Virus genome (UHGV): UHGV-0276305
Reading direction: 5' to 3' (one strand)
Source of the DNA: a virus
Length of the DNA: 36,129 nucleotides
Part shown: positions 892 through 26,035 of the stretch, piece after piece
Layout of the letters: every line of letters starts with the position of its first letter
Numbering within the stretch: the stretch's first letter is position 1
Translations under genes and position numbers: made by a program
The notes under the pieces: generated by a model
What the model was told of the DNA's origin: nothing
The model's input: only the letters and a program-made list of their open reading frames with translations
The model's database searches: none

Positions 892-8910
<8,019 letters not shown>

Positions 8911-8911
<1 letters not shown>

Positions 8912-9150
8912 TACATTTTTCCTGCTCTTCTAAGTTCGTTGTAAGCAATTTCCTCTTTATACGACCTCTGAATTTCAAGAAATTGTCTCAATGATAATAA
9001 ATCAGAGAATGTCATAGCAAAGAGTTGGTCAAGTGTTTCTTTACACCCTTCCATACCATAAATAGCAAGCACAAATTTCATCTCGTCTGCTTCTTCATAG
9101 GTTGCCTCTACAGCAGCATCAGTTAGTGGTGTCTGTAGAGTGTTACCCAT
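8911..9150 (-). CDS. tail assembly chaperone, frameshift-extension ORF (GT-like C-terminal part)
   Basis: 79-aa ORF in the -1 frame relative to the upstream chaperone; frame stays open upstream across the chaperone stop. Confidence 0.6.
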
Positions 9151-9152
9151 GT

Positions 9153-9551
9153 TTACTGAGAAGTTAGGCTTTTGAAAATGCTTGCTTCGAAAAAACTTCC
9201 GAAGTTTGCCTCCAGCGCAAATGCTAAGTAATCAATAAATTCACCATAGTTTGCTTGGAAGTATGTATCAATATTAAGTGGGAAGTCATCAACAGTTGCC
9301 CCTTGAAATAATAAGGTAGCCATCTCTTCAAGGTTAATTTCTTCAATTCTGTCAAAACAAGCTTCAACAAGTTCTTTAAATGGAACCATTGGAGCTTCTT
9401 TCTTACCCTTGTCAGTCAGACTTGACAGCATCTGTGCAAAAGTTGGAACAACAATTTTACCCAACTTCATAGACATCTTAATACCATCTCTTGCCCCAAG
9501 CAGAATGATATTCACTTTCTTACCGTTAATTACTCTAGATTCTGTTTTCAT
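9153..9551 (-). CDS. tail assembly chaperone (G-like)
   Basis: 132-aa ORF between tube and tape measure genes; contains slippery U_UUU_UUC about 40 nt before its stop. Confidence 0.6.
   Translation of the reverse strand: MKTESRVINGKKVNIILLGARDGIKMSMKLGKIVVPTFAQMLSSLTDKGKKEAPMVPFKELVEACFDRIEEINLEEMATLLFQGATVDDFPLNIDTYFQANYGEFIDYLAFALEANFGSFFEASIFKSLTSQ
9189..9195 (-). other. candidate -1 programmed ribosomal frameshift slippery heptamer (U_UUU_UUC)
   Basis: plus-strand gaaaaaa = minus-strand UUUUUUC, in-frame as U UUU UUC in the 132-aa chaperone; a -1 slip reads FFRSKHFQKPNFSVN then continues into the 79-aa ORF. Confidence 0.55.
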
Positions 9552-9577
9552 TGTGATTCCTTAATACTTTTAAAAGA

Positions 9578-9613
9578 AACAAAAAAGGGGAAGACCTTTT
9601 AAAGTCTCCCCCT
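9578..9613 (-). terminator. intrinsic terminator between tube and chaperone genes
   Basis: minus-strand RNA forms a 9-10 bp GC-rich stem (GGGGGAGAC / GUCUUCCCC) followed by UUUUUUGUUUCUUUU. Confidence 0.6.
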
Positions 9614-9624
9614 TATAGGATTTA

Positions 9625-10071
9625 TTAAACACTTGACGCTGGAATTGTAGAAGTGTAGTCTAGCTTCTCACAACCAAAAATCCAAGTTTTAGAGTTCTGG
9701 TCACGACCAAGTTCAATCTGTGGTAATTCCTGCAACCAAGCATTAATACCAGTTGCCAGAACAGAGCCTGATGGGTCGTAGATTACGAAGTTAGAAGAGA
9801 TATCTTCTTCAAGTTCCATATTGTCTTGTTTAGCTTGAATTGCAGAAAGCATCTGGTTAGAGAGAGAAGTCTGCATTAACTCAATCTCAATAGTACCTGT
9901 CTTGTCTGCATTTCTTGTCAGAGCAACCTGACCACCTGCACCAACAACTGGTGTCACAAGTGGTGATGTTCTCTGTAGACGCAAGAATGAGTCTGGAGCA
10001 AAGCCTTCAATGGCAATACCATTCCAGCTACATACAACGTCTTTAGGGGAATATTGCTGATACATAGCCAT
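9625..10071 (-). CDS. tail tube protein
   Basis: 148-aa ORF immediately downstream of sheath gene; positional and size-based. Confidence 0.6.
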   Translation of the reverse strand: MAMYQQYSPKDVVCSWNGIAIEGFAPDSFLRLQRTSPLVTPVVGAGGQVALTRNADKTGTIEIELMQTSLSNQMLSAIQAKQDNMELEEDISSNFVIYDPSGSVLATGINAWLQELPQIELGRDQNSKTWIFGCEKLDYTSTIPASSV

Positions 10072-16587: not shown

Positions 16588-17087
16588 TAATTAAACCTTA
16601 CTTTTTGTTTAAGGACTGTTGAATGGTTACCAGATTCATCTACCACATTTACAATCATATTATATACTTTACCTTTGACAAGTACTTTGTAATCATTTTG
16701 TGAAAAAATGTACTCAAGTCTGTTTGTTTCTTTATTAACTGTCATTGGAGATTGAAATGCAGTGTCGAGGGTAATGAAAGCGGCTTCAATGCTATTAACA
16801 TTGATACGTTTATTCTCGCAGTTATATAACTTTACACCCAAAAGGCATGAACTGTCAAATGGAATTTTAACAATTTCACTACAATTTCCTAAAATAAACG
16901 GTTTTCCACTCATTGGTGCATCAAGTAACCTGCAAATAGTGAAAACGTCAGAGGTTCCACCATCACTTACATAACCTGAAAGGCTGACCCTTGAGCCAGC
17001 CTCTACAGATAATTTGTCAGTGATAATAAGAACACCTCTATACGAATGCACTCGTGTAGCATTTGAAATAGAGATAACTTCAGCCAT
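16587..17087 (-). CDS. hypothetical protein
   Basis: 166-aa ORF, start overlaps portal stop. Confidence 0.45.
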   Translation of the reverse strand: MAEVISISNATRVHSYRGVLIITDKLSVEAGSRVSLSGYVSDGGTSDVFTICRLLDAPMSGKPFILGNCSEIVKIPFDSSCLLGVKLYNCENKRINVNSIEAAFITLDTAFQSPMTVNKETNRLEYIFSQNDYKVLVKGKVYNMIVNVVDESGNHSTVLKQKVRFN

Positions 17088-18562
17088 TATTTATTTGCCT
17101 TATTTGCTGTGCTTGGGTCTTTCGCTGAAGGTGTCTTTGCAGTACCTTCTCCAGCGGTCTTATAACCATCTCCTGAGCGGCTTTGGCTATTTGGAGAAAG
17201 CTTTTCAGATACTGGCTGAGACTCATCAGCAGGAGGGAGACCAATATGCTCTCTAAGTTTGTTAGATAGCTCTTTGTCAACTTCCAAAGCACCTACTGCA
17301 ACAGTCTTCTGAATATAAGAACCAATTGCTTCAAGGTCTGGAGTTTCGATATCATCATATGTGATTTGTACATGTTCTTCATCATCCCACATATTAAGAG
17401 CATAAGTCTGTGCAACTAAATCACGGTTAATTACGTTCTTAATTTGCTTCAGCAGAATATCTACTGACATTGCTAGTAAACTCGTCTTAGAATCTGCAAG
17501 AGAGAATGAACCATATTTTGACTGACCCATAGCAAGAACATCTGACATAAATGCCATCATAATCTGCTTGGAATATCTGTCAATAATAGAACCTGTATCG
17601 TATGCTTTAGCACCCTGTCTAGAAACTAATGAGAACTCAAAAATATCCTCTTTAGTATCTGGGTCGATATATCTAGGCCAGATTAAACCTGCTCTATCAT
17701 TAGCAATCATATCGTTAACAACAGTTTTGCAGTATTGTACGAAAGCTTTCTTTTCAGGTTCTGCATTTTCATCTAGATAGTCTGGTGGTAAACCAATCTT
17801 TGGCATACCTACTAAGTCTCTTGAAACGCCAACAGCCTCATACTCTTCAATCTGTACTTTATATTTCCACGGTACATAAGCATTAAGTAGTGGTGAACGA
17901 CCTTCTGGGTTTCCATATTCATCGTCATACTTAAACAGCATGAATTTAGCTCGTGGAAGTTTTCTTGTTAGCGGTCTTTCTCCAAGATTAATTGCTCCAG
18001 CAATATGTGAAACATTTCTCAGATTCTGTCTAACACCAGTAACTTTTCTAAAGTCTTCGTCAAAATACCACTTATCAAGTGTTGATTGGTTTCTGATTGG
18101 TAATTTAGCCCATCCAATTAGACCATCATCAAATTTTGACTGGTACTTTCCTTTTTTACCCTGTCGCTTCTTATAAACTTTCTCGTTAACACAGAACCCA
18201 TAAGTGCAGAATGACATTACAGAGTTAATAAAATCTGCCCAATCATGCTCCATGTCATCCATTAAAGAATTAAAGAAGTCTGCTCTCTCAAGCATTTTAG
18301 GGTCTTGCTCTTTTCCCTTTGGAGGTACGAATCTCCAGTTGACTTTTCTGACAAACATCTTAATAATATTTACAGATGCTGCTACAGCAGGGTCACGCAT
18401 CATTAATTGGAAAGTTTTAATACTTTCAGGGAACCTTAGTGCCTGACGAGGTTCTTCATAGATTCTTCCATTCTTAACCTTCAGACCCAAAGAACCTACT
18501 TCACCCATTCTAAATGGTGGTAAGCTTTCTTGTGTTTCTGTAATATCTGCCATTCTTCTCAC
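17087..18562 (-). CDS. portal protein
   Basis: 491-aa ORF immediately downstream of terminase large subunit; positional and size-based. Confidence 0.6.
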   Translation of the reverse strand: MRRMADITETQESLPPFRMGEVGSLGLKVKNGRIYEEPRQALRFPESIKTFQLMMRDPAVAASVNIIKMFVRKVNWRFVPPKGKEQDPKMLERADFFNSLMDDMEHDWADFINSVMSFCTYGFCVNEKVYKKRQGKKGKYQSKFDDGLIGWAKLPIRNQSTLDKWYFDEDFRKVTGVRQNLRNVSHIAGAINLGERPLTRKLPRAKFMLFKYDDEYGNPEGRSPLLNAYVPWKYKVQIEEYEAVGVSRDLVGMPKIGLPPDYLDENAEPEKKAFVQYCKTVVNDMIANDRAGLIWPRYIDPDTKEDIFEFSLVSRQGAKAYDTGSIIDRYSKQIMMAFMSDVLAMGQSKYGSFSLADSKTSLLAMSVDILLKQIKNVINRDLVAQTYALNMWDDEEHVQITYDDIETPDLEAIGSYIQKTVAVGALEVDKELSNKLREHIGLPPADESQPVSEKLSPNSQSRSGDGYKTAGEGTAKTPSAKDPSTANKANK

Positions 18563-18569
18563 CTAGCTA

Positions 18570-20186
18570 TCAACGTCTAAGCCCCTCATATGGGTTTCCT
18601 CTCACTAAGTCTGTGTGAGCACCCATTGATGGTGGCTTGAATAATTTAACTTCGTTCAGACTGTTGAAAGCATCACTGGTAGCATCCACTTGGTCATCTT
18701 TAGTTTTACCATCACCACAAAAGCCTTCAAGCTCTTGGAAGTAAGCTTCATTCCAACTACCTCTCAAGACTTTTACAAGTCCAGCTTCAGAAGCAGCAGA
18801 AAACCCCGCAAATCGGGTAACTTTATCTTTATTTGTTGGTTTAGCTCTTGCACGATAGCCTTTCTCGGCAAGTTTCCTGATGAGGGATGTTGCGTAGGAT
18901 TTACCAGCAGCGCCTGGGTCTTGAGGGATAAAAATACCAGTTCGCTTACCGTCACTTTCAGCAGTCAAATTAATTTGTGTTTCGACTCCAGAGGGTCTAT
19001 CTCTAAATCTTACTACATCAATGATATAATAGCAACCGTCTTTTTTAGATTTACCCATCTTAACACCTGCTGTCCAGTCTGGATTAGGGTTAATCTCAGA
19101 TGGTAAAGTTGCTGCTAAGTCCCATGCTCTGACATCAAACACATCTTCTGGGAGTGAATCAACAATCTCACACCATTGTCTTTGCCAATAGTTTGAACCT
19201 TCTGCACGAGCCTTCCAGTTACCGAAACGAAGTCTTGCAACGTTTACAGGGGTGTTGTTTTCCAACTTACCACGGTACTTAGGTTCTAAGAAGTCAAGGA
19301 TTGGGTTATCATCAATCGTACCAGAAATAAAGGTGTATGTTTGAGGAATCTCAAGAGGAAACATTTCAAGAATCTTGTCTCTCTCCCAATCAGAAACCAT
19401 CACACCATCGTTCATAACATACCAACGAATACGACCACACTTTTCAGGGTCTGGATAACCTTCTTCATCTAAGAATGGCTCTACCCAATCGTAAATAAAG
19501 TGGTCTCTGTCTGGGTTCATGGAAATCTTCATGTATGAATCACCTTCAGCACCAGAACGGAGACGGGTTTGTAGGTATGAAATCTGTGAAGCAGAGAAGT
19601 GTGTACCTTCATCAAAGTAAATAGCTGAGTATTCAATACCCTGATGACCTTCAGCGTGCTTTTCAAGTTCTAGGTAGGTAAACTTGATAGTTGCCCCAGA
19701 AGGGAATGTGATAGTCATTTTCTGCTCGTGAGGAATCCCACCAAACTTACCAAATAGTTTCTTTGCAGCAGGCCATAAACCACCCTGTAACTGTGTTGTG
19801 TTTCGACGGAAATACACAGCATTATAGTTAGGGTCTTCAATAAATCTTAAAGAGTCCATTAACAATGCAGCAGTCTTACCAGCACCAGCAGCACCACCAT
19901 AGAGTACCAAGTCAGCATTAGTATTTAAAAAGACCTCTTGAGAACCCGGCTGAGGGGCTACATAGTTCTTATCAGTCATCAATTTGAAGATAAGTCTAAC
20001 TTGGTCTGGTGTGTATCTTAATAAAGTCAGAATTTGAGTTGGAAGGAATTTAGAGGGGTCTTTACCGAACGATTTGATAATTTCTTTTACTTCATCAGAA
20101 AGCCCCAACTCTCCAGCTAGGACTTTCCTAACATCTTCCACTCGCTTCTGCTTAACAGCATTTAAGTCCATTAAGCACCTCCGCAA
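18570..20186 (-). CDS. terminase large subunit
   Basis: 538-aa ORF with Walker A VLYGGAAGAGKT near N-terminus; first large gene of the late operon. Confidence 0.85.
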   Translation of the reverse strand: MRRCLMDLNAVKQKRVEDVRKVLAGELGLSDEVKEIIKSFGKDPSKFLPTQILTLLRYTPDQVRLIFKLMTDKNYVAPQPGSQEVFLNTNADLVLYGGAAGAGKTAALLMDSLRFIEDPNYNAVYFRRNTTQLQGGLWPAAKKLFGKFGGIPHEQKMTITFPSGATIKFTYLELEKHAEGHQGIEYSAIYFDEGTHFSASQISYLQTRLRSGAEGDSYMKISMNPDRDHFIYDWVEPFLDEEGYPDPEKCGRIRWYVMNDGVMVSDWERDKILEMFPLEIPQTYTFISGTIDDNPILDFLEPKYRGKLENNTPVNVARLRFGNWKARAEGSNYWQRQWCEIVDSLPEDVFDVRAWDLAATLPSEINPNPDWTAGVKMGKSKKDGCYYIIDVVRFRDRPSGVETQINLTAESDGKRTGIFIPQDPGAAGKSYATSLIRKLAEKGYRARAKPTNKDKVTRFAGFSAASEAGLVKVLRGSWNEAYFQELEGFCGDGKTKDDQVDATSDAFNSLNEVKLFKPPSMGAHTDLVRGNPYEGLRR

Positions 20187-20615: not shown

Positions 20616-20691
20616 TGGAGAATCCGAAGGGACTCGAACCCTTATAAACCTGTTTTGCAGACAGGCACATAGCCATTTCTGTCACGGATTC
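20616..20691 (-). tRNA. tRNA-Cys (GCA)
   Basis: hand-folded: 7-bp acceptor GAATCCG/CGGATTC, anticodon arm CCTGT-CTGCAAA-ACAGG, T-arm AAGGG-TTCGAGT-CCCTT, CCA encoded. Confidence 0.8.
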
Positions 20692-20695
20692 AAAT

Positions 20696-20788
20696 TGGAG
20701 GAAGATACCAGACTTGAACTGGTACACCGATTTCTCAGCTACTGGCAGTTTAGCAAACTGCTCCCTTACCTTTTAGGGTTAATCTTCC
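20696..20788 (-). tRNA. tRNA-Ser (GCU), long variable arm
   Basis: 93 nt; acceptor GGAAGAT/ATCTTCC, anticodon arm GCAGT-TTGCTAA-ACTGC, T-arm ACCAG-TTCAAGT-CTGGT, CCA encoded. Confidence 0.75.
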
Positions 20789-20789
20789 A

Positions 20790-21533
20790 TTATTTCTGTA
20801 ATGCGTTCTTCATTTCTGGTGTTGCAATAGTGTCAATCACACCAGTTTTACAAGCATCATCAAACCAGTCTGGTAAGATACCTGCTAAGAACCCATTGAT
20901 ATTCGTTTTAAGGTACTCTGCAATAAGAGCAGCTTCTTCTTCAATCATCTGCACAACTTCATCTGCATAAGCTGTAATCTTCGAAATACCTTCATTAATC
21001 TTACTAACAGCTTGGTTAGCTAAATCAGAAATAGTATCAAGACCTTTGTCAATAGCATCTTGTAAGTCACTTAATACACCATTAACACTATCTAGTGTAC
21101 TGTTCATCATGTCAATAGCTTTTTGACCATACTCTGTAGCAACACCCATGATACCACTGAATGGTGTACAACCAACTTGTTCTCCTGCTGCACCCATAAC
21201 ATTGGAATACCCCTTTGCTACCTGCATACGTGATGAAAACTCATCAATAGACTTTTGACCGTAGTCTGTCAGAGTTTTAGTAGTTGCTGTAGTGCTTGTA
21301 AGGCTTGTTGTAAAGCTGTTTAGAAGGACTGTTGTAAGTCCAGCAGCAACAAGTTTCTCCTTCATTGTAGGGTCTGTTACAGAACTAATAGAGCTTACAA
21401 GTGATGTAGAAGCAGCTACGGTTCCACCGAGAACTGCTGCACCAGTAATAAGCGGGTTAGAGAACCCTTTACCGGTTTTTAAGAGATTAAAAATCTCCTT
21501 ACCTTGTTCTGTCATCTCTTTCATTAAGCACCT
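20790..21533 (-). CDS. hypothetical protein embedded at edge of tRNA cluster
   Basis: ORF track gives 20790..21587, but the first 18 codons overlap a tRNA-like gene; start more likely the MKEM Met at 21533; hydrophobic N-terminal segment then Ala/Thr-rich and helical regions. Confidence 0.5.
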   Translation of the reverse strand, partial: RCLMKEMTEQGKEIFNLLKTGKGFSNPLITGAAVLGGTVAASTSLVSSISSVTDPTMKEKLVAAGLTTVLLNSFTTSLTSTTATTKTLTDYGQKSIDEFSSRMQVAKGYSNVMGAAGEQVGCTPFSGIMGVATEYGQKAIDMMNSTLDSVNGVLSDLQDAIDKGLDTISDLANQAVSKINEGISKITAYADEVVQMIEEEAALIAEYLKTNINGFLAGILPDWFDDACKTGVIDTIATPEMKNALQK

Positions 21534-21540
21534 TTGAAAT

Positions 21541-21617
21541 TGGTAGTCCAGTGGGATTTGAACCCTCTTCTCATGTTTTTCAGACACGCGCTTTAACCAT
21601 ATAAGCTACTTGGACTA
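21541..21617 (-). tRNA. atypical tRNA-like gene, anticodon GAA (Phe-like)
   Basis: perfect 7-bp acceptor TAGTCCA/TGGACTA, D-stem GCTT/AAGC, anticodon arm CGTGT-CTGAAAA-ACATG, T-loop TTCAAAT; but 2 extra nt between acceptor and U8 and an A-A mismatch in T-stem. Confidence 0.35.
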
Positions 21618-21622
21618 TAAAT

Positions 21623-21698
21623 TGGGGTGACCTACGGGATTTGAACCCGTATAGACCATGTTCACAGCATGGGTCATTACCATTTATGATAAGGCCAC
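21623..21698 (-). tRNA. tRNA-His (GUG)
   Basis: acceptor GTGGCCT/AGGTCAC, D-stem TCAT/ATGA, anticodon arm CCATG-CTGTGAA-CATGG, T-arm ACGGG-TTCAAAT-CCCGT, CCA encoded. Confidence 0.8.
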
Positions 21699-21704
21699 AT
21701 TTAA

Positions 21705-21724
21705 GGACTCTCGTAAGAACCCTT
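21705..21724 (-). promoter_or_regulatory. conserved ~20-nt motif (plus-strand GGACTCTCGTAAGAACCCTT) just upstream of tRNA-His
   Basis: near-identical copies at 25261-25281 and a diverged copy at 24326-24347, each a few nt upstream (in the transcription direction) of an RNA gene. Confidence 0.3.
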
Positions 21725-21729
21725 AGAAG

Positions 21730-21805
21730 TGGCAGCGGCATAAGGATTTGAACCTTAATAGGACAGCTTCAGAGACTGTTGCATTGCCAGTTATGCTATA
21801 CCGCT
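21730..21805 (-). tRNA. tRNA-Gln (CUG)
   Basis: acceptor AGCGGTA/TGCCGCT, D-stem GCAT/ATGC, anticodon arm ACAGT-CTCTGAA-GCTGT, T-arm TAAGG-TTCAAAT-CCTTA, CCA encoded. Confidence 0.75.
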
Positions 21806-21810
21806 AAATT

Positions 21811-21889
21811 TGGTACTCCATATCGGATTCGAACCGATACATAACACAGATTTTAAGTCTGGCCTCTCTGCCAATTGGAGTAATGGAGC
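21811..21889 (-). tRNA. tRNA with anticodon UAA (Leu by anticodon; short variable loop)
   Basis: 79 nt; acceptor GCTCCAT/ATGGAGT, D-loop AATTGGCAGAG (Leu-like), anticodon loop CTTAAAA, T-arm ATCGG-TTCGAAT-CCGAT, A73, CCA encoded; variable loop only about 7 nt. Confidence 0.6.
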
Positions 21890-21891
21890 AT

Positions 21892-21967
21892 TGGCGGGGG
21901 ATGTTGGAATTGAACCAACTTCTTCGATTTCAAAGACCGAGGTTTTAACCTTGTAAACTAATCCCCT
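21892..21967 (-). tRNA. tRNA-Gln (UUG)
   Basis: acceptor with 1:72 A-C mismatch, D-stem GTTT/AAAC, anticodon arm TCGGT-CTTTGAA-ATCGA, T-arm GTTGG-TTCAATT-CCAAC, CCA encoded. Confidence 0.7.
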
Positions 21968-21975
21968 TTAAATCT

Positions 21976-22533
21976 TTACTTTCTCAGTGGATGAATAAAG
22001 AATGCCAACATAACTCTTTCCCTTGAGAATGCTCTTTCTTCTGGGACAACACTTTTTAGTTTCCATCCAATATAAATTCTCCAGTAAAACTGTTTACCAA
22101 AGACTTTGATTGATGGGATAAAAGCGAATAATCCCCAAGCATTACTGTTCCACATTAGGAGATAACCAGTCTGATTATCTTCAGGGTTAGAACTTACGTT
22201 GATATTACCTTTCCACTTAGTAACATCTTTTACATCTCTTCCTAATACATGGTAAGAGAAGTTATAAGCTTTGTTTCTCCAGAGCCATCCAACTCTCTGC
22301 ATGTAGACACCAAGCTTACCAATCTTTCTAATCTTAGCCCATCTCTCAACGTGGCCTTTGTCACCATCAATAGGGTTGTCATAGGTCTCCATCCATCTGA
22401 ATCCAAAAGGTAGATGCCCTTTCTTCTCACTGTAGAATGGAACTACGAAAGGTGCTAAGATGACTGCTAGGGTTGCTGCAAATGGTTCTAACAAAGCTAA
22501 GAAAACCCATGAAGCATACTTCAAATATCTCAT
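21976..22533 (-). CDS. hypothetical membrane-anchored protein inside tRNA cluster
   Basis: 185-aa ORF between tRNA genes; hydrophobic N-terminus (WVFLALLEPFAATLAVILAPFVVPF), Trp/Lys-rich remainder. Confidence 0.55.
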   Translation of the reverse strand: MRYLKYASWVFLALLEPFAATLAVILAPFVVPFYSEKKGHLPFGFRWMETYDNPIDGDKGHVERWAKIRKIGKLGVYMQRVGWLWRNKAYNFSYHVLGRDVKDVTKWKGNINVSSNPEDNQTGYLLMWNSNAWGLFAFIPSIKVFGKQFYWRIYIGWKLKSVVPEERAFSRERVMLAFFIHPLRK

Positions 22534-22552
22534 CTAAATAGCCTCTTTAAAT

Positions 22553-22628
22553 TGGCGCAGGATAAGGGATTCGAACCCCTATTAACAGCTTCGTAGACTG
22601 TTGCTCTATCCATTTGAACTAATCCTGC
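22553..22628 (-). tRNA. tRNA-Arg (ACG)
   Basis: acceptor GCAGGAT/ATCCTGC, anticodon arm ACAGT-CTACGAA-GCTGT, T-arm AGGGG-TTCGAAT-CCCTT, CCA encoded. Confidence 0.8.
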
Positions 22629-22633
22629 AAAAT

Positions 22634-22711
22634 TGGTGTTCCAAGACGGATTCGAACCGTCACTAGTACAAGGTTTGAGCTTGCATCCTCTGCCAATTGG
22701 GATACTGGAAC
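22634..22711 (-). tRNA. tRNA with anticodon CAA (Leu by anticodon; short variable loop)
   Basis: 78 nt; acceptor GTTCCAG/TTGGAAC, D-loop AATTGGCAGAG, anticodon arm GCAAG-CTCAAAC-CTTGT, T-arm GACGG-TTCGAAT-CCGTC, A73, CCA encoded; variable loop about 6 nt. Confidence 0.6.
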
Positions 22712-22712
22712 A

Positions 22713-22787
22713 TGGTACTCACTAAAGGACTTGAACCTTTTTCTTCATCTTGTAAGGGTGATGTTTTACCATATAAACTAAGCGAGT
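22713..22787 (-). tRNA. tRNA-Val (UAC)
   Basis: acceptor ACTCGCT/AGTGAGT, D-stem GTTT/AAAC, anticodon loop CTTACAA, T-arm AAAGG-TTCAAGT-CCTTT, CCA encoded. Confidence 0.75.
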
Positions 22788-22790
22788 GTG

Positions 22791-22878
22791 AAAGAGGTCT
22801 GAAGTTGTGCCGCTAACTCAACTCCGTGGAATTTGTTACGGTCTTCAGTTGACACCAGCGGTCTTTCACTTGACCTCT
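22791..22878. ncRNA. structured spacer: ~88-nt extended hairpin between tRNA-Val and tRNA-Thr
   Basis: outer 7-bp pairing agaggtc (22793-22799) with gacctct (22872-22878), inner tgaag/cttca pairing; no canonical T-loop so not callable as tRNA. Confidence 0.3.
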
Positions 22879-22882
22879 GAAT

Positions 22883-22958
22883 TGGTGCTCCCACAAGGAT
22901 TCGAACCCTGATAAGTTGCTTACAAGGCAACCGTAATAGCCAATTATACGATAGGAGC
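22883..22958 (-). tRNA. tRNA-Thr (UGU)
   Basis: acceptor GCTCCTA/TGGGAGC, anticodon arm GTTGC-CTTGTAA-GCAAC, T-arm CAGGG-TTCGAAT-CCTTG, CCA encoded. Confidence 0.8.
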
Positions 22959-22965
22959 ATTAATT

Positions 22966-23040
22966 TGGAGCATCCAGAGGGAATCGAACCCTCAACCTCA
23001 GTTTGGAAGACTGTAATTTTCCCGTTTAAACTATGGATGC
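22966..23040 (-). tRNA. tRNA-Gly (UCC)
   Basis: acceptor GCATCCA/TGGATGC, D-stem GTTT/AAAT, anticodon loop CTTCCAA, T-arm GAGGG-TTCGATT-CCCTC, CCA encoded. Confidence 0.75.
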
Positions 23041-23046
23041 ACTAAT

Positions 23047-23122
23047 TGGTGGAGAAGCAGGGGATTGAACCCTGTACTTAAGTTTGCAAAACTTATGTTT
23101 TAACCATGTAAACTACATCCCC
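23047..23122 (-). tRNA. tRNA-Ala (UGC)
   Basis: acceptor GGGGATG with G3-U70 wobble, D-stem GTTT/AAAC, anticodon arm TAAGT-TTTGCAA-ACTTA, T-arm CAGGG-TTCAATC-CCCTG, A73, CCA encoded. Confidence 0.75.
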
Positions 23123-23128
23123 AATGTT

Positions 23129-23204
23129 TGGTACAGGTGGAGGGAATTGAACCCATCGTCTTACTGATTAAGAGTCAGCCGCATAACCATTTTGCTACAC
23201 CTGC
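23129..23204 (-). tRNA. tRNA-Lys (CUU)
   Basis: acceptor GCAGGTG/CACCTGT, anticodon arm GCTGA-CTCTTAA-TCAGT, T-loop TTCAATT with imperfect T-stem (ATGGG/CCCTC), CCA encoded. Confidence 0.65.
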
Positions 23205-23211
23205 ATTAATT

Positions 23212-23289
23212 TGGTAGGAGACAAGGGATTCGAACCCTCAAACACCAACTTCTAAGGATGGTAGGTTTACCAATTACCGTCAATCTCCC
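23212..23289 (-). tRNA. tRNA with anticodon UAG (Leu by anticodon; short variable loop)
   Basis: 78 nt; acceptor GGGAGAT/GTCTCCT, D-loop contains TAATTGGTAAA, anticodon loop CTTAGAA (stem has one T-T mismatch), T-arm GAGGG-TTCGAAT-CCCTT, A73, CCA encoded. Confidence 0.5.
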
Positions 23290-23364
23290 ATTAAATCTTT
23301 TTAGAGAACTTCTAAGAACCTAAGCAACAAGGTTCCACAACAAGCTGTAATAACCTTAGAAGCC

Positions 23365-23390
23365 CTCTAAAAAGACCTAAAAAGGTCTTT
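23365..23390 (-). terminator. terminator-like hairpin inside tRNA cluster
   Basis: minus-strand AAAGACC-UUUUUA-GGUCUUU then UUAGAG; U-tract partly within stem. Confidence 0.35.
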
Positions 23391-23547
23391 GCATAGTCTT
23401 GTTTAATCCGGTGACTAGAACCTTTGGAGAGCTTGATATTATCTCTTCTCCGTGACACCTACTAGGTGTTTTATCTGTGTGTACGACAATACACGAGGGA
23501 TAAACCGAAAATGCGAGCAAGCATGGACGGTGTAAAATCTTATTAGG

Positions 23548-23635
23548 CGGTAAGTAAAGGAGTCGAACCCTCACCGTATCTCTACAGTGGCAACTGTTTT
23601 CAAGACAGTTTGGCTACCATTAGCCGCTACCTACC
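23548..23635 (-). tRNA. tRNA-Ser (UGA), long variable arm
   Basis: 88 nt; acceptor GGTAGGT/ACTTACC, anticodon arm ACTGT-CTTGAAA-ACAGT, about 20-nt variable arm, T-arm GAGGG-TTCGACT-CCTTT; CCA not encoded. Confidence 0.7.
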
Positions 23636-23648
23636 CCTAATAAGACTT

Positions 23649-23731
23649 TGGCATGGGACGGAGGAGTTGAACCACTTTGAAACGGTTTTGGAGGCCGTTG
23701 CTCATGCCTTAGAGTCTTAACATCGTCCCAC
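23649..23731 (-). tRNA. atypical tRNA-like gene, anticodon CCA (Trp-like)
   Basis: 83 nt; acceptor GTGGGAC/GTCCCAT, anticodon loop CTCCAAA on ACGGC/ACCGT stem, CCA encoded; D region about 7 nt too long and T-stem AGTGG/CCTCC has 2 mismatches. Confidence 0.4.
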
Positions 23732-23868
23732 ACTATAATTCGAAGCTTACCGTATTATCTCAACACTGTAAAGCCCCTTCTCAGATTATTTACATGTTCT
23801 GGAAAACATGAGATACAGACCACCTCCTTACACGGAGACCCGATAAGGTCGTCTAAGCAATCTGCTAA

Positions 23869-24216
23869 CTAATACTTTGCATGTCTTACCCTATGGCAAT
23901 TTGAACATAGCAAAACACATTTGTCAAGTTCATCTTTTAGTTCTTGAGAGAACTTCAGACTTTTTCTATGACCAATGTTAAAATCTTTCTCTGAAGGATT
24001 CAAATGATGGAAGTCATACACTGCTGGATGATACCTTTTACCACAATCATGACAAACCCCACCTTTGTACTCAATAGCTGAAAGTTTAAGTGCTCTTTGT
24101 CTTTCTATGGTTTGCTCATTAACACACTTTTTACAGTATGAATGAGTTCTCTTACCATCTTTCATGTAGAAATCATTTTCATCCTTGCTAAGTTTGCACC
24201 TAATACAAGTTTTCAT
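23869..24216 (-). CDS. HNH homing-endonuclease-like protein
   Basis: about 116 aa from MKTCIRCK (ORF-track N-terminal extension overlaps a tRNA-like gene); CxxC..CxxC zinc-finger-like N-terminus and HNH core (YDFHHLNP ... N ... LLCSNCHRVRH). Confidence 0.8.
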   Translation of the reverse strand: MKTCIRCKLSKDENDFYMKDGKRTHSYCKKCVNEQTIERQRALKLSAIEYKGGVCHDCGKRYHPAVYDFHHLNPSEKDFNIGHRKSLKFSQELKDELDKCVLLCSNCHRVRHAKY

Positions 24217-24230
24217 GATTTCTCCAAAAT

Positions 24231-24312
24231 TGGTCGAGGCGGCAGGACTCGAACCCGCATACTCCACTTACTCGGTTAACGGCGGTTTAGAAGACCGCTG
24301 AGATACGCCCCG
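24231..24312 (-). tRNA. atypical tRNA-like gene, anticodon UCU (Arg-like)
   Basis: 82 nt; acceptor CGGGGCG/CGCCTCG, canonical T-arm GCGGG-TTCGAGT-CCTGC, CCA encoded, perfect anticodon arm GCGGT-CTTCTAA-ACCGC; no recognisable D-arm and an extra 23-nt segment before the T-arm. Confidence 0.4.
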
Positions 24313-24325
24313 TAATTATCTTTAA

Positions 24326-24347
24326 AGACTCTCTTAGAAAGCCCTTA
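24326..24347 (-). promoter_or_regulatory. diverged copy of the conserved ~20-nt motif, just upstream of the Arg-like tRNA
   Basis: plus-strand agactctcttagaaagccctta versus ggactctcgtaagaaccctta at 21705. Confidence 0.25.
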
Positions 24348-24649
24348 AAGATGCCCACTTTATTAATCATACCGTGGGCTAGTACGCCAAATTCTTTGAT
24401 GAGGGATTGGAAGACCTCACTGGTGTTTAGCCTATCAAGCTACTGCCAGAAAAACATTGTCGTTTGCATTTATTTTAAATTTGCAAAATAGACGCTACGC
24501 AACGAAAACTATTCAGAATATGTACAACAAATTTCCCCACATTGTGTTACGTCTAACGCTCATGTATTGGTGTTTGAATTATACATATTATGAAGTATTT
24601 TAGTTACTATAAAGTGGTCACATCTCAATGTCAACAACTTTATTGAAAT

Positions 24650-24725
24650 TGGTACTGGTAGGTGGAATCGAACCACCGATGTTCCCTTATCAGGGGAGTG
24701 TTATAACCTTCTTAACTATACCAGC
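24650..24725 (-). tRNA. tRNA-Ile (GAU)
   Basis: acceptor GCTGGTA/TACCAGT, D-stem GTTA/TAAC, anticodon loop CTGATAA, T-arm GGTGG-TTCGATT-CCACC, CCA encoded. Confidence 0.75.
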
Positions 24726-24726
24726 T

Positions 24727-24803
24727 TGGAGGTTCAGATGGGAATCGAACCCACATTCATAGGGCTTATGAGACCCTTGCATTACCTTATCTGCGACTGA
24801 ACC
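24727..24803 (-). tRNA. tRNA-Met (CAU)
   Basis: acceptor GGTTCAG/CTGAACC, anticodon arm AGGGT-CTCATAA-GCCCT, T-arm GTGGG-TTCGATT-CCCAT, CCA encoded. Confidence 0.75.
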
Positions 24804-24807
24804 ATTT

Positions 24808-24883
24808 TGGTAGAAGTGGAGGGATTCGAACCCATCGCCTGTCAGATTAAAAGTCTGCCGCATCACCATTCTGCTACACTTCC
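24808..24883 (-). tRNA. tRNA-Lys (UUU)
   Basis: acceptor GGAAGTG/CACTTCT, anticodon loop CTTTTAA, T-loop TTCGAAT with same imperfect T-stem as tRNA-Lys(CUU), CCA encoded. Confidence 0.65.
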
Positions 24884-24887
24884 ATTA

Positions 24888-25031
24888 AATTATCTTTGTA
24901 GATAAGCTACCCAGACTTGCTTAAGGTCTGTAGCGATGTGCCTTTTTGGGTTTAAATCTAGAATTTACCCTTTCACCCTTTGTGGTCGCATACTCACAGG
25001 TAAGCTTAATAACTTATCTACAAAGATAATT
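24888..25031. repeat. 19-bp perfect inverted repeat flanking a ~106-bp core (long-stem structured element)
   Basis: 24888-24906 (aattatctttgtagataag) is the exact reverse complement of 25013-25031; core contains further short hairpins. Confidence 0.6.
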
Positions 25032-25032
25032 A

Positions 25033-25163
25033 CCAGACCGTTGTTTATCATCTTAAGTGCTACCATTACACCAACTCGACATCTGCCGAGTGAAGGAATC
25101 GAACCTTCGCCTTTTCTTTACCGAGAAATAGATTGTTTAAGTTTTGCTGTAAACGGTCTTCTG
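25033..25163. repeat. repeated spacer element copy A (ccagacc ... gtttgctg-N-ggtcttctg), contains a tRNA 3' fragment
   Basis: shares 5' ccagacc and 3' ttgctgNaaNggtcttctg with three other copies. Confidence 0.5.
25084..25108 (-). pseudogene. tRNA 3' fragment (T-arm plus acceptor 3' strand), no matching 5' half found
   Basis: GAAGG-TTCGATT-CCTTC T-arm followed by ACTCGGC; no complementary GCCGAGT within 100 nt upstream. Confidence 0.35.
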
Positions 25164-25176
25164 TAAATTTGTTGAG

Positions 25177-25250
25177 CCAGACCAAGTTTTAAATTTTTCA
25201 AAATTAAATTGGCTTGAAATTTTAAGTAACTTGCTGTATTTGGTCTTCTG
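25177..25250. repeat. repeated spacer element copy D
   Basis: ccagacc at 25177-25183 ... cttgctgtatttggtcttctg ending 25250. Confidence 0.5.
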
Positions 25251-25260
25251 CTCCTTTAAA

Positions 25261-25281
25261 GGATACTCGTAAGAACCCTTT
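25261..25281 (-). promoter_or_regulatory. second copy of the conserved ~20-nt motif (plus-strand GGATACTCGTAAGAACCCTTT)
   Basis: matches 21705-21724 at 18 of 20 positions; lies just upstream (in the transcription direction) of spacer copy D. Confidence 0.3.
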
Positions 25282-25311
25282 AAGGGAGGGGCTAAATAGC
25301 CCTCTCAAAAT

Positions 25312-25389
25312 TGGCGGTTACGAAGGGATTTGAACCCTCATCATCTCCCGTGACAGGGGAGTATTTTAACCAAATTAAACTACATAACC
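25312..25389 (-). tRNA. tRNA-Asp (GUC)
   Basis: acceptor GGTTATG/CGTAACC, D-stem GTTT/AAAT, anticodon arm CTCCC-CTGTCAC-GGGAG, T-arm GAGGG-TTCAAAT-CCCTT, CCA encoded. Confidence 0.8.
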
Positions 25390-25394
25390 TTTAT

Positions 25395-25482
25395 TGGTGT
25401 GCCGTGTAGGAGTCGAACCTACCGAGTCTCAATGACAAGGGATTTACAGTCCCCACCGCTACCATCTACGGGATAACGACAC
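25395..25482 (-). tRNA. tRNA-Tyr (GUA), long variable arm
   Basis: 88 nt; acceptor GTGTCGT/ACGGCAC, anticodon arm GGGGA-CTGTAAA-TCCCT, about 15-nt variable arm, T-arm GTAGG-TTCGACT-CCTAC, CCA encoded. Confidence 0.75.
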
Positions 25483-25551
25483 ATTTAATTTCTATTCAGG
25501 CTAAGGACTTGCACCTTACAAATCGGTGAGCAATTGCTTCTCTCCTAAATT

Positions 25552-25628
25552 TGGCGGTTAGTCAGGGATTCGAACCCTGTGCCATTCGCTTAACAGGCGA
25601 CCGCACATACCTTATGTGCTTCCTAACC
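25552..25628 (-). tRNA. tRNA-Asn (GUU)
   Basis: acceptor GGTTAGG/ACTAACC (one mismatch), D-stem GCAC/GTGC, anticodon loop CTGTTAA, T-arm CAGGG-TTCGAAT-CCCTG, CCA encoded. Confidence 0.75.
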
Positions 25629-25639
25629 TTAATACATTG

Positions 25640-25699
25640 CCAGACCGTGTTTTTTCTTTTATCCGCAAAAAGTAGTTTGTTGCTGAATACGGTCTTCTG
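25640..25699. repeat. repeated spacer element copy B
   Basis: ccagacc at 25640-25646 ... gtttgttgctgaatacggtcttctg ending 25699; directly abuts the 3' end of the next tRNA. Confidence 0.5.
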
Positions 25700-25705
25700 C
25701 AAAAT

Positions 25706-25782
25706 TGGAGGCGGGTGCAGGAGTCGAACCTACCGATACCATGCTAATGAGACATGTGAGACGCCCTTTCTCTATACCCGCA
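25706..25782 (-). tRNA. tRNA with anticodon CAU (Met, initiator or Ile2; unresolved)
   Basis: anticodon arm CATGT-CTCATTA-GCATG, T-arm GTAGG-TTCGACT-CCTGC, CCA encoded; position 1:72 unpaired (T-C) and 3 nt between acceptor and D-stem. Confidence 0.6.
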
Positions 25783-25793
25783 ATTCTTAATGA

Positions 25794-25866
25794 CCAGACC
25801 AAATCTCTTCTTTGTCCGATTTCGTGTCAGATGAATAAGATTAAGTTTGCTGCAATTGGTCTTCTG
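25794..25866. repeat. repeated spacer element copy C
   Basis: ccagacc at 25794-25800 ... gtttgctgcaattggtcttctg ending 25866. Confidence 0.5.
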
Positions 25867-25873
25867 TCAAAAC

Positions 25874-25951
25874 TGGCGTTCCAGAAGGGATTTGAACCCT
25901 CAAATATCCACTTTGAAAGAGTGGTGACTTTACCGTTTTGTCTACTGGAAC
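25874..25951 (-). tRNA. tRNA-Glu (UUC)
   Basis: acceptor GTTCCAG/CTGGAAC, anticodon arm CCACT-CTTTCAA-AGTGG, T-arm GAGGG-TTCAAAT-CCCTT, CCA encoded. Confidence 0.8.
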
Positions 25952-25958
25952 ATTAATT

Positions 25959-26035
25959 TGGTCTCTGTTGGAGGACTTGAACCTCCGGCCTTACCGCCCC
26001 AAACGGAACGCTCTACCAAGCTGAGCTAAACAGAG
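25959..26035 (-). tRNA. tRNA-Pro (UGG)
   Basis: acceptor CTCTGTT/AACAGAG, D-arm GCTC-AGCTTGGTA-GAGC, anticodon loop TTTGGGG, T-arm GGAGG-TTCAAGT-CCTCC, CCA encoded. Confidence 0.8.

Follow-up and report, generated by a model that had tools for sequence, protein, structure and literature searches.

Comparative evidence for a programmed -1 frameshift of the G/GT type between the two tail assembly chaperone ORFs of a Felix O1-like myophage

Two small ORFs, here called G and T, lie between the tail tube-type gene and the tape measure gene of the virus genome UHGV-0276305, and the question is whether they are two separate genes or whether T is expressed as an extension of G through a programmed -1 ribosomal frameshift. 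The analysis covered a stretch of 36,129 nucleotides, hereafter the window, which judged by its sequence is a Felixounavirus genome; a 1.4-kb region shows 99% nucleotide identity to Escherichia coli Felix O1-like myophages and has matches in 295 phage records. As listed in Table 1, the genes follow each other on the minus strand in the order sheath, tube, G, T and tape measure, so that the chaperone pair occupies the tube/tape measure interval that is the position of the G/GT class. G was assigned to PF21822 with an E value of 2.8e-19 and 70.3 bits (cut-off 22), the match covering profile positions 1-124 of 127, and to phrog_1613 with an E value of 2.6e-48. The terminator-like hairpin that separates tube and G has a counterpart in some relatives, where a terminator is annotated at the equivalent place, and it may lead to the chaperone and tape measure genes being transcribed less than sheath and tube. 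Elsewhere in the window, the ORFs 17087-18562 and 18570-20186 (minus strand) are mechanically listed with GTG and TTG starts that show no Shine-Dalgarno (SD) complementarity, and their true starts probably lie elsewhere.

Table 1. Coordinates of the genes and sequence elements discussed in the text
Feature	Position	Strand	Particulars
Tail sheath gene, 450 aa	10087..11439	-	phrog_205 tail sheath, E 8.8e-123
Tail tube-type gene, 148 aa	9625..10071	-	directly 5' of G; PF11681 (Phage_Tube_PhiTE), phrog_280
Terminator-like hairpin and T run	9585..9614	-	13-bp stem; interval between tube stop (9625) and G start (9551)
G, tail assembly chaperone ORF, 132 aa	9153..9551	-	ATG 9551, TAA 9155-9153; PF21822 Phage_TAC_15, phrog_1613
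Overlap zone, zero and -1 frames both open	9153..9231	-	79 nt, 26 codons; limits the position of the shift
GGAGG, internal Shine-Dalgarno-like element	9209..9213	-	13 nt 5' of the heptamer; candidate 5' stimulator
Slippery heptamer T_TTT_TTC (U_UUU_UUC)	9189..9195	-	X_XXY_YYZ register; Phe codons 120-121
T segment, -1 frame after the predicted slip	8911..9189	-	92 codons, CGA 9189-9187 to TAA 8913-8911
79-aa ORF (T)	8911..9150	-	ATG 9150; phrog_4963 tail assembly chaperone, E 2.8e-55, full length
Tape measure gene, 742 aa	6683..8911	-	PF20155 TMP_3; phrog_4036, E 0

An earlier note on this DNA had placed a U_UUU_UUC heptamer at 9189-9195 of the minus strand, in the zero frame of the 132-aa chaperone and about 40 nt before its stop, with the -1 frame open from there into the 79-aa ORF. 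Coordinates and register proved correct. The zero frame near the end of G reads GCA AAC TTC GGA AGT TTT TTC GAA GCA (A N F G S F F E A); the heptamer stands at offset 356 in G, and since 356 mod 3 is 2, the Ser codon ends with its first T, while TTT and TTC are codons 120 and 121. The distance from the start of the heptamer to the first base of the stop codon of G (TAA, 9155-9153) is 40 nt. On its 5' side the -1 frame is bounded by a TGA at 9234-9232; from 9231 it stays open as far as the TAA at 8913-8911, and the +1 frame is closed (6 codons). As in the conserved G/GT class (Xu et al. 2004), a slippery heptamer is thus found in zero-frame register inside the overlap of the two frames. In E. 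coli, motifs of the H_HH.U_UU.Y form count among the efficient ones for -1 shifts; U_UU.U_UU.C itself yields more than 0.1% frameshifting there with no stimulator present, is under-represented in the genes of this bacterium and serves as a shift site in IS elements (PMC4066793).

A slip at this site predicts a GT coding sequence, complement(join(8911..9189, 9189..9551)), that encodes 213 aa and reads ...ANFGSFF|RSKHFQKPNF... around the junction; the junction peptide quoted by the earlier note, FFRSKHFQKPNFSVNMGNTLQ, was recovered exactly. Further stretches of the predicted junction are ANFGSFFRSKHF and ANFGSFFRSKHFQKPNF, and the post-slip reading is FF-RSKHFQKPNFSVNMGNTLQ. The stop codon of T overlaps the ATG of the tape measure gene (TAATG, 8913-8909). 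At another place on the minus strand, the window carries a cluster of 25 phage tRNA genes (20616-26035), which includes a tRNA-Phe(GAA) at 21541-21616, the decoder of both codons of U_UUU_UUC.

Taken in one genome, the heptamer has no statistical significance: the ORFs of the window contain 36 in-register X_XXY_YYZ heptamers in 9849 codons, and about 0.095 would be expected by chance in an overlap of 26 codons. Only one of the 36, the present one, has a long -1 ORF after it (92 codons, the next longest being 35).

We therefore turn to the comparative evidence, which on the sequences aligned is strong and is decisive over that of the single genome. The loci compared comprised, within the Ounavirinae, Felix O1, Mushroom, UAB_Phi87 and radambza (Felixounavirus), Mijalis (Mooglevirus), mistaenkt (Suspvirus) and phiEa21-4 (Kolesnikvirus), together with Yersinia phage P778, Alteromonas phage PT11-V22, rV5 and phiTE (Vequintavirinae), Pseudoalteromonas phage H101 and three metagenomic contigs, L014 to L016, the first two of which encode an identical G protein. 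The heptamer was present in the same register in all 11 lineages sampled, with G identity to the window falling as low as 26-31%, and in every one of these loci the -1 frame is open from the heptamer to the tape measure gene. Conservation therefore spans four Ounavirinae genera, the Vequintavirinae, two marine myophages and three metagenomic phage contigs. The seventh base is C in 9 of the 11 lineages, the two marine phages having TTTTTTT (T7) instead. In the contig L016 a TAG lies directly 5' of the heptamer, which is the exact point where the -1 frame opens, and in P778 this frame opens one codon 5' of the heptamer, so that the 5' limit of the shift is pinned to the heptamer. When blastn was run against the Erwinia (Kolesnikvirus) phages, the sole match of the query was a 41-nt block, 9206-9166, centred on the heptamer. 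The families, the gene order and the heptamer kept throughout the 11 lineages all bear out what the earlier note had said of this locus, namely its likeness to the conserved G/GT chaperone frameshift between tube and tape measure genes.

Part of this conservation belongs to the protein. Residues F120-F121 of G are invariant in the relatives compared, and the T run is partly explained in this way. The codon 5' of the heptamer is AGT (Ser), TGT (Cys) or GGT (Gly), with its final T always kept. With the amino acids held fixed as [S/C/G]-F-F, the probability of obtaining the heptamer from synonymous codon usage was 0.14-0.34 per lineage; the product over the 11 lineages is 1e-7, or about 1e-4 if they are collapsed to about 7 independent lineages. 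The base immediately 5' of the heptamer (9196, minus strand) is G in 11 of 11 lineages despite the varying amino acid, which may reflect an E-site context effect or shared ancestry.

The exception to the conservation of the site is a prophage of Buttiauxella noackiae (locus L013, 1501-2486 of JPRU01000001.1), which lacks the slippery heptamer. A 126-aa G is followed there by a separate ORF of 201 aa, which holds G-like and T-like parts in one uninterrupted frame and aligns with residues 81-208 of the predicted fusion, unbroken over the junction, with an E value of 5e-13 (NFGVFLSFVVKPFVKPDF against NFGSFFRSKHFQKPNF). A natural fused homologue of GT therefore exists, and by its sequence the prophage looks like a case in which a second gene, encoding the already fused form, stands in place of the frameshift. 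No sheath or tube gene was seen directly upstream at this locus.

The reading that competes most directly with a frameshift takes G and T as two genes, the 79-aa ORF being translated from its ATG at 9150 by termination-reinitiation, the heptamer being a by-product of Phe-Phe and no fusion being made. It agrees with the annotation of separate ORFs in most GenBank records, with the invariance of F120-F121 in G and with the spacing of only 2 nt between the G stop and the ATG in the T frame of Felixounavirus (TAAACATG), but it accounts poorly for what is found in and around T. The ATG at 9150 has no SD (+0.7 kcal/mol, against a median of -6.0), being the weakest of the 24 starts of the structural module, and it is not conserved as a T start in the relatives. 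In phiEa21-4, Alteromonas phage PT11-V22 and phiTE, no ATG, GTG or TTG occurs in the first 57-65 codons of the T frame, which make up most of its conserved length, and no gene is annotated or called in the T frame of phiEa21-4 or L016. Homology in T begins 5' of the ATG, at the first post-slip codon: from that residue on, T aligns with phiEa21-4 at 51% identity (E 3e-30), where G reaches only 41%, and with the T frame of L016 at 34% identity (E 9e-13). A Phe-Phe by-product likewise fits badly with the third-position T that persists whether the codon stands for Ser, Cys or Gly, and two genes without a fusion fit badly with the single ORF of Buttiauxella that spans the junction. The second ORF is in sum -1, overlapping and without a dependable start of its own, as in the G/GT class, and the 79-aa ORF is probably not initiated independently. 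Some free 79-aa T could arise by termination-reinitiation in Felixounavirus; with no SD, start-less T frames, T homology that begins at the slip and a fused homologue, this cannot be the conserved route, and we consider two genes without a fusion highly unlikely. A hairpin at 9151-9096 (minus strand, z -2.4), whose basal stem takes in the ATG of the 79-aa ORF, could further suppress independent initiation of T.

If G and T are joined, the join might still be made in another manner or at another site. RNA polymerase could add one U at the T6 run, and the U7 transcripts would then yield the same 213-aa GT, the nascent-RNA hairpin at 9215-9199 possibly acting as a helper. The sequence itself dictates that a one-base insertion in the run gives an identical product; in addition, a pattern scan flagged this hairpin and the T run, which it adjoins, as terminator-like (6 pairs, -6.5 kcal/mol, ending 3 nt 5' of the U6 run and overlapping GGAGG), and two distant relatives have T7. 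The run in the window is nevertheless 6 nt long, as against the approximately 9 nt at which selection against slippage-prone A/T runs becomes evident in bacterial genes, the productive cases being 9A or 9T (PMC1088944), and it has not been maximised, C being kept at position 7 in 9 of 11 lineages; the ribosomal hierarchy in E. coli places U_UUC above U_UUU (PMC4066793). The 5' hairpin is moreover weak and not conserved: similar small hairpins occur in most relatives, not in all, at -1.5 to -8.1 kcal/mol and with z-scores that are mostly non-significant. As both routes would give the same protein, mass spectrometry of the fusion peptide cannot separate ribosomal from transcriptional slippage. 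We give the latter a very slim chance. A slip of a single tRNA at 9177-9174, on the tetramer U_UUC (AUU UUC), would give ...FFEASIF|QKPNF... and is the least probable of these rival explanations. The tetramer lies inside the overlap, 12 nt after the heptamer, and U_UU.C ranks second among the shift-prone tetramers of E. coli, but tetramers hardly shift at all unless a strong 3' stimulator accompanies them (PMC4066793), and none is present here. It is conserved (9174-9177, minus strand) in Felixouna-, Moogle-, Susp- and Kolesnikvirus and not in more distant lineages, being absent in L014, L016, rV5, phiTE and H101, where the heptamer is kept.

Based on these observations, we hold it very probable that a programmed -1 ribosomal frameshift of the G/GT type takes place at the heptamer in this Felix O1-like myophage. 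The majority of ribosomes would make the 132-aa G and terminate at 9155-9153. In a minority, tRNA-Phe on UUU in the P site and on UUC in the A site would slip back by one base and re-pair with UUU UUU, after which 92 further codons would be read in the -1 frame, giving a 213-aa GT whose reading would stop one base into the start codon of the tape measure gene. That the slippage is ribosomal is what we infer from the above, and the efficiency of GT production is probably a few percent. By analogy with lambda, many copies of G and few of GT would coat the tape measure protein, binding to it by their G domains; tube subunits would be recruited by the T extension, and both G and GT would be absent from the virion. 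The roles thus assigned to the G and T domains follow that analogy. A PDB sequence search with the fusion gave no meaningful match, and when the Mushroom fusion was modelled with AlphaFold from its single sequence, the pLDDT was 32 and the model unusable. In the searchable literature, no experimental detection of GT was found for any Felix O1-like phage.

As for elements that might stimulate the shift, the earlier note had suggested looking for a structure downstream of the heptamer, and here the outcome was negative. The 59 nt 3' of the heptamer fold at -3.4 kcal/mol (z +1.2), no better than shuffles; RNAalifold gave no consensus pairs 3' of the heptamer in an alignment of 7 relatives; and an Rfam scan of 8800-9700 returned no frameshift element, with two sub-threshold chance matches. 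There is accordingly no stable stem-loop or pseudoknot 5-9 nt after the heptamer of the kind that marks E. coli dnaX and the IS cassettes. The hairpin at 9151-9096 was rejected as a 3' stimulator, because at 38 nt from the heptamer its start is too distant for a canonical one; the small hairpin at 9215-9199, being weak and variable among the relatives, was likewise rejected as a stimulator of slippage.

On the 5' side, the internal GGAGG may be a stimulator. Its pairing with the anti-SD is worth -9.3 kcal/mol, a value of -9 or lower being reached by 0.6% of coding 25-mers of the structural module, and its spacing of 13 nt falls inside the 9-14 nt range of SD-like stimulators of -1 shifts (PMC5009743). 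An SD-like element at or below -8.8 kcal/mol was found in 6 of 11 lineages and is absent in phiEa21-4, phiTE and P778. It overlaps conserved Leu-Glu-Ala codons, and synonymous resampling revealed no significant enrichment (P 0.06-1.0 per lineage; combined P 0.09). We regard it as unlikely that the frameshift is set here by 5' or trans factors, either GGAGG-16S rRNA pairing of the dnaX kind or the phage tRNA-Phe(GAA), and not by 3' RNA structure; were this true, the phage tRNA-Phe(GAA) could tune the GT:G ratio during infection. To our knowledge, neither control of the GGAGG type nor control by a phage tRNA-Phe has been described for phage tail chaperone frameshifts.

Among known systems, one parallel is gpG/gpGT of lambda, whose slippery heptamer is G_GGA_AAG and whose -1 frameshift was reportedly worked out by Levin and colleagues in 1993 and by Xu, Hendrix and Duda in 2004, 2013 and 2014. 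The 1993 work is also said to have found that the lambda G/GT frameshift needs no 3' structure. The window resembles lambda in the position between tube-type and tape measure genes, in a slip near the 3' end of G and in a -1 extension of about 90 codons that runs to the tape measure gene; it differs in that its phage is contractile-tailed and that its G matched PF21822 Phage_TAC_15 alone in Pfam. Phage P2, whose slippery sequence is of the T6G type, offers a second parallel: Christie and colleagues reportedly described in 2002 the E / E+E' frameshift of this myophage, in the tube/tape measure interval and on a U-rich slippery run, and the window shares with P2 the myophage type, the location and the U-rich run. 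In lambda, the fusion is made at a low level, with a G:GT ratio of about 30:1, and the two proteins have chaperone roles; the P2 frameshift is 2-3 times as efficient as that of lambda (PMC5009743). With E. coli dnaX and the IS cassettes the window may be compared for its GGAGG, a candidate stimulator whose 13-nt distance from the heptamer falls between 9 and 14 nt, whereas the 3' hairpin is wanting in the window and the SD-like element is missing in phiEa21-4, phiTE and P778.

The junction is already known as a prediction, in the form of a joined CDS in the records of Mushroom, Moogle, Mijalis and Michonne. In GenBank, Salmonella phage Mushroom and Citrobacter phage Mijalis each have a CDS joined from two pieces over the exact region. 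The fusion derived from our slip model for Mushroom is, letter for letter, AJF40599.1/YP_009600435.1, and that for Moogle/Mijalis is, again letter for letter, AIW03804.1/ARB06563.1/YP_009145710.1; the annotated fusion of Michonne is also present in the protein collection. With reference to Xu et al. 2004, the genome papers of Moogle and Michonne state that the tape measure chaperone involves a -1 translational frameshift (PMC4319497, PMC4591319). At the site region, the window shares 97.5% nucleotide identity with Mushroom and about 81% with Mijalis, with the same genes, heptamer and junction; it differs from the annotated Felix O1-like fusions by sequence variants only; its exact 213-aa sequence is not deposited, and the annotations are themselves predictions. 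In contrast to these records, Felix O1, the RefSeq entry of UAB_Phi87 and most others list two separate ORFs. A search for homologous proteins with the fusion returned only G proteins of 124-136 aa, because gene callers do not produce fusions; it was by look-up of the exact sequences that the annotated fusions came to light.

Overall, the finding is an ordinary one and opens no new question. Its value lies in part in annotation, as most of the approximately 300 Felix O1-like records list two small ORFs and not G plus a joined 213-aa GT; in the window, the annotation should be complement(join(8911..9189, 9189..9551)). The prophage with the fused form provides a natural control. For the tailed phages, the locus is a further well-supported instance of near-universal G/GT recoding, with U_UUU_UUY as its slippery sequence across Ounavirinae, Vequintavirinae and marine myophages.
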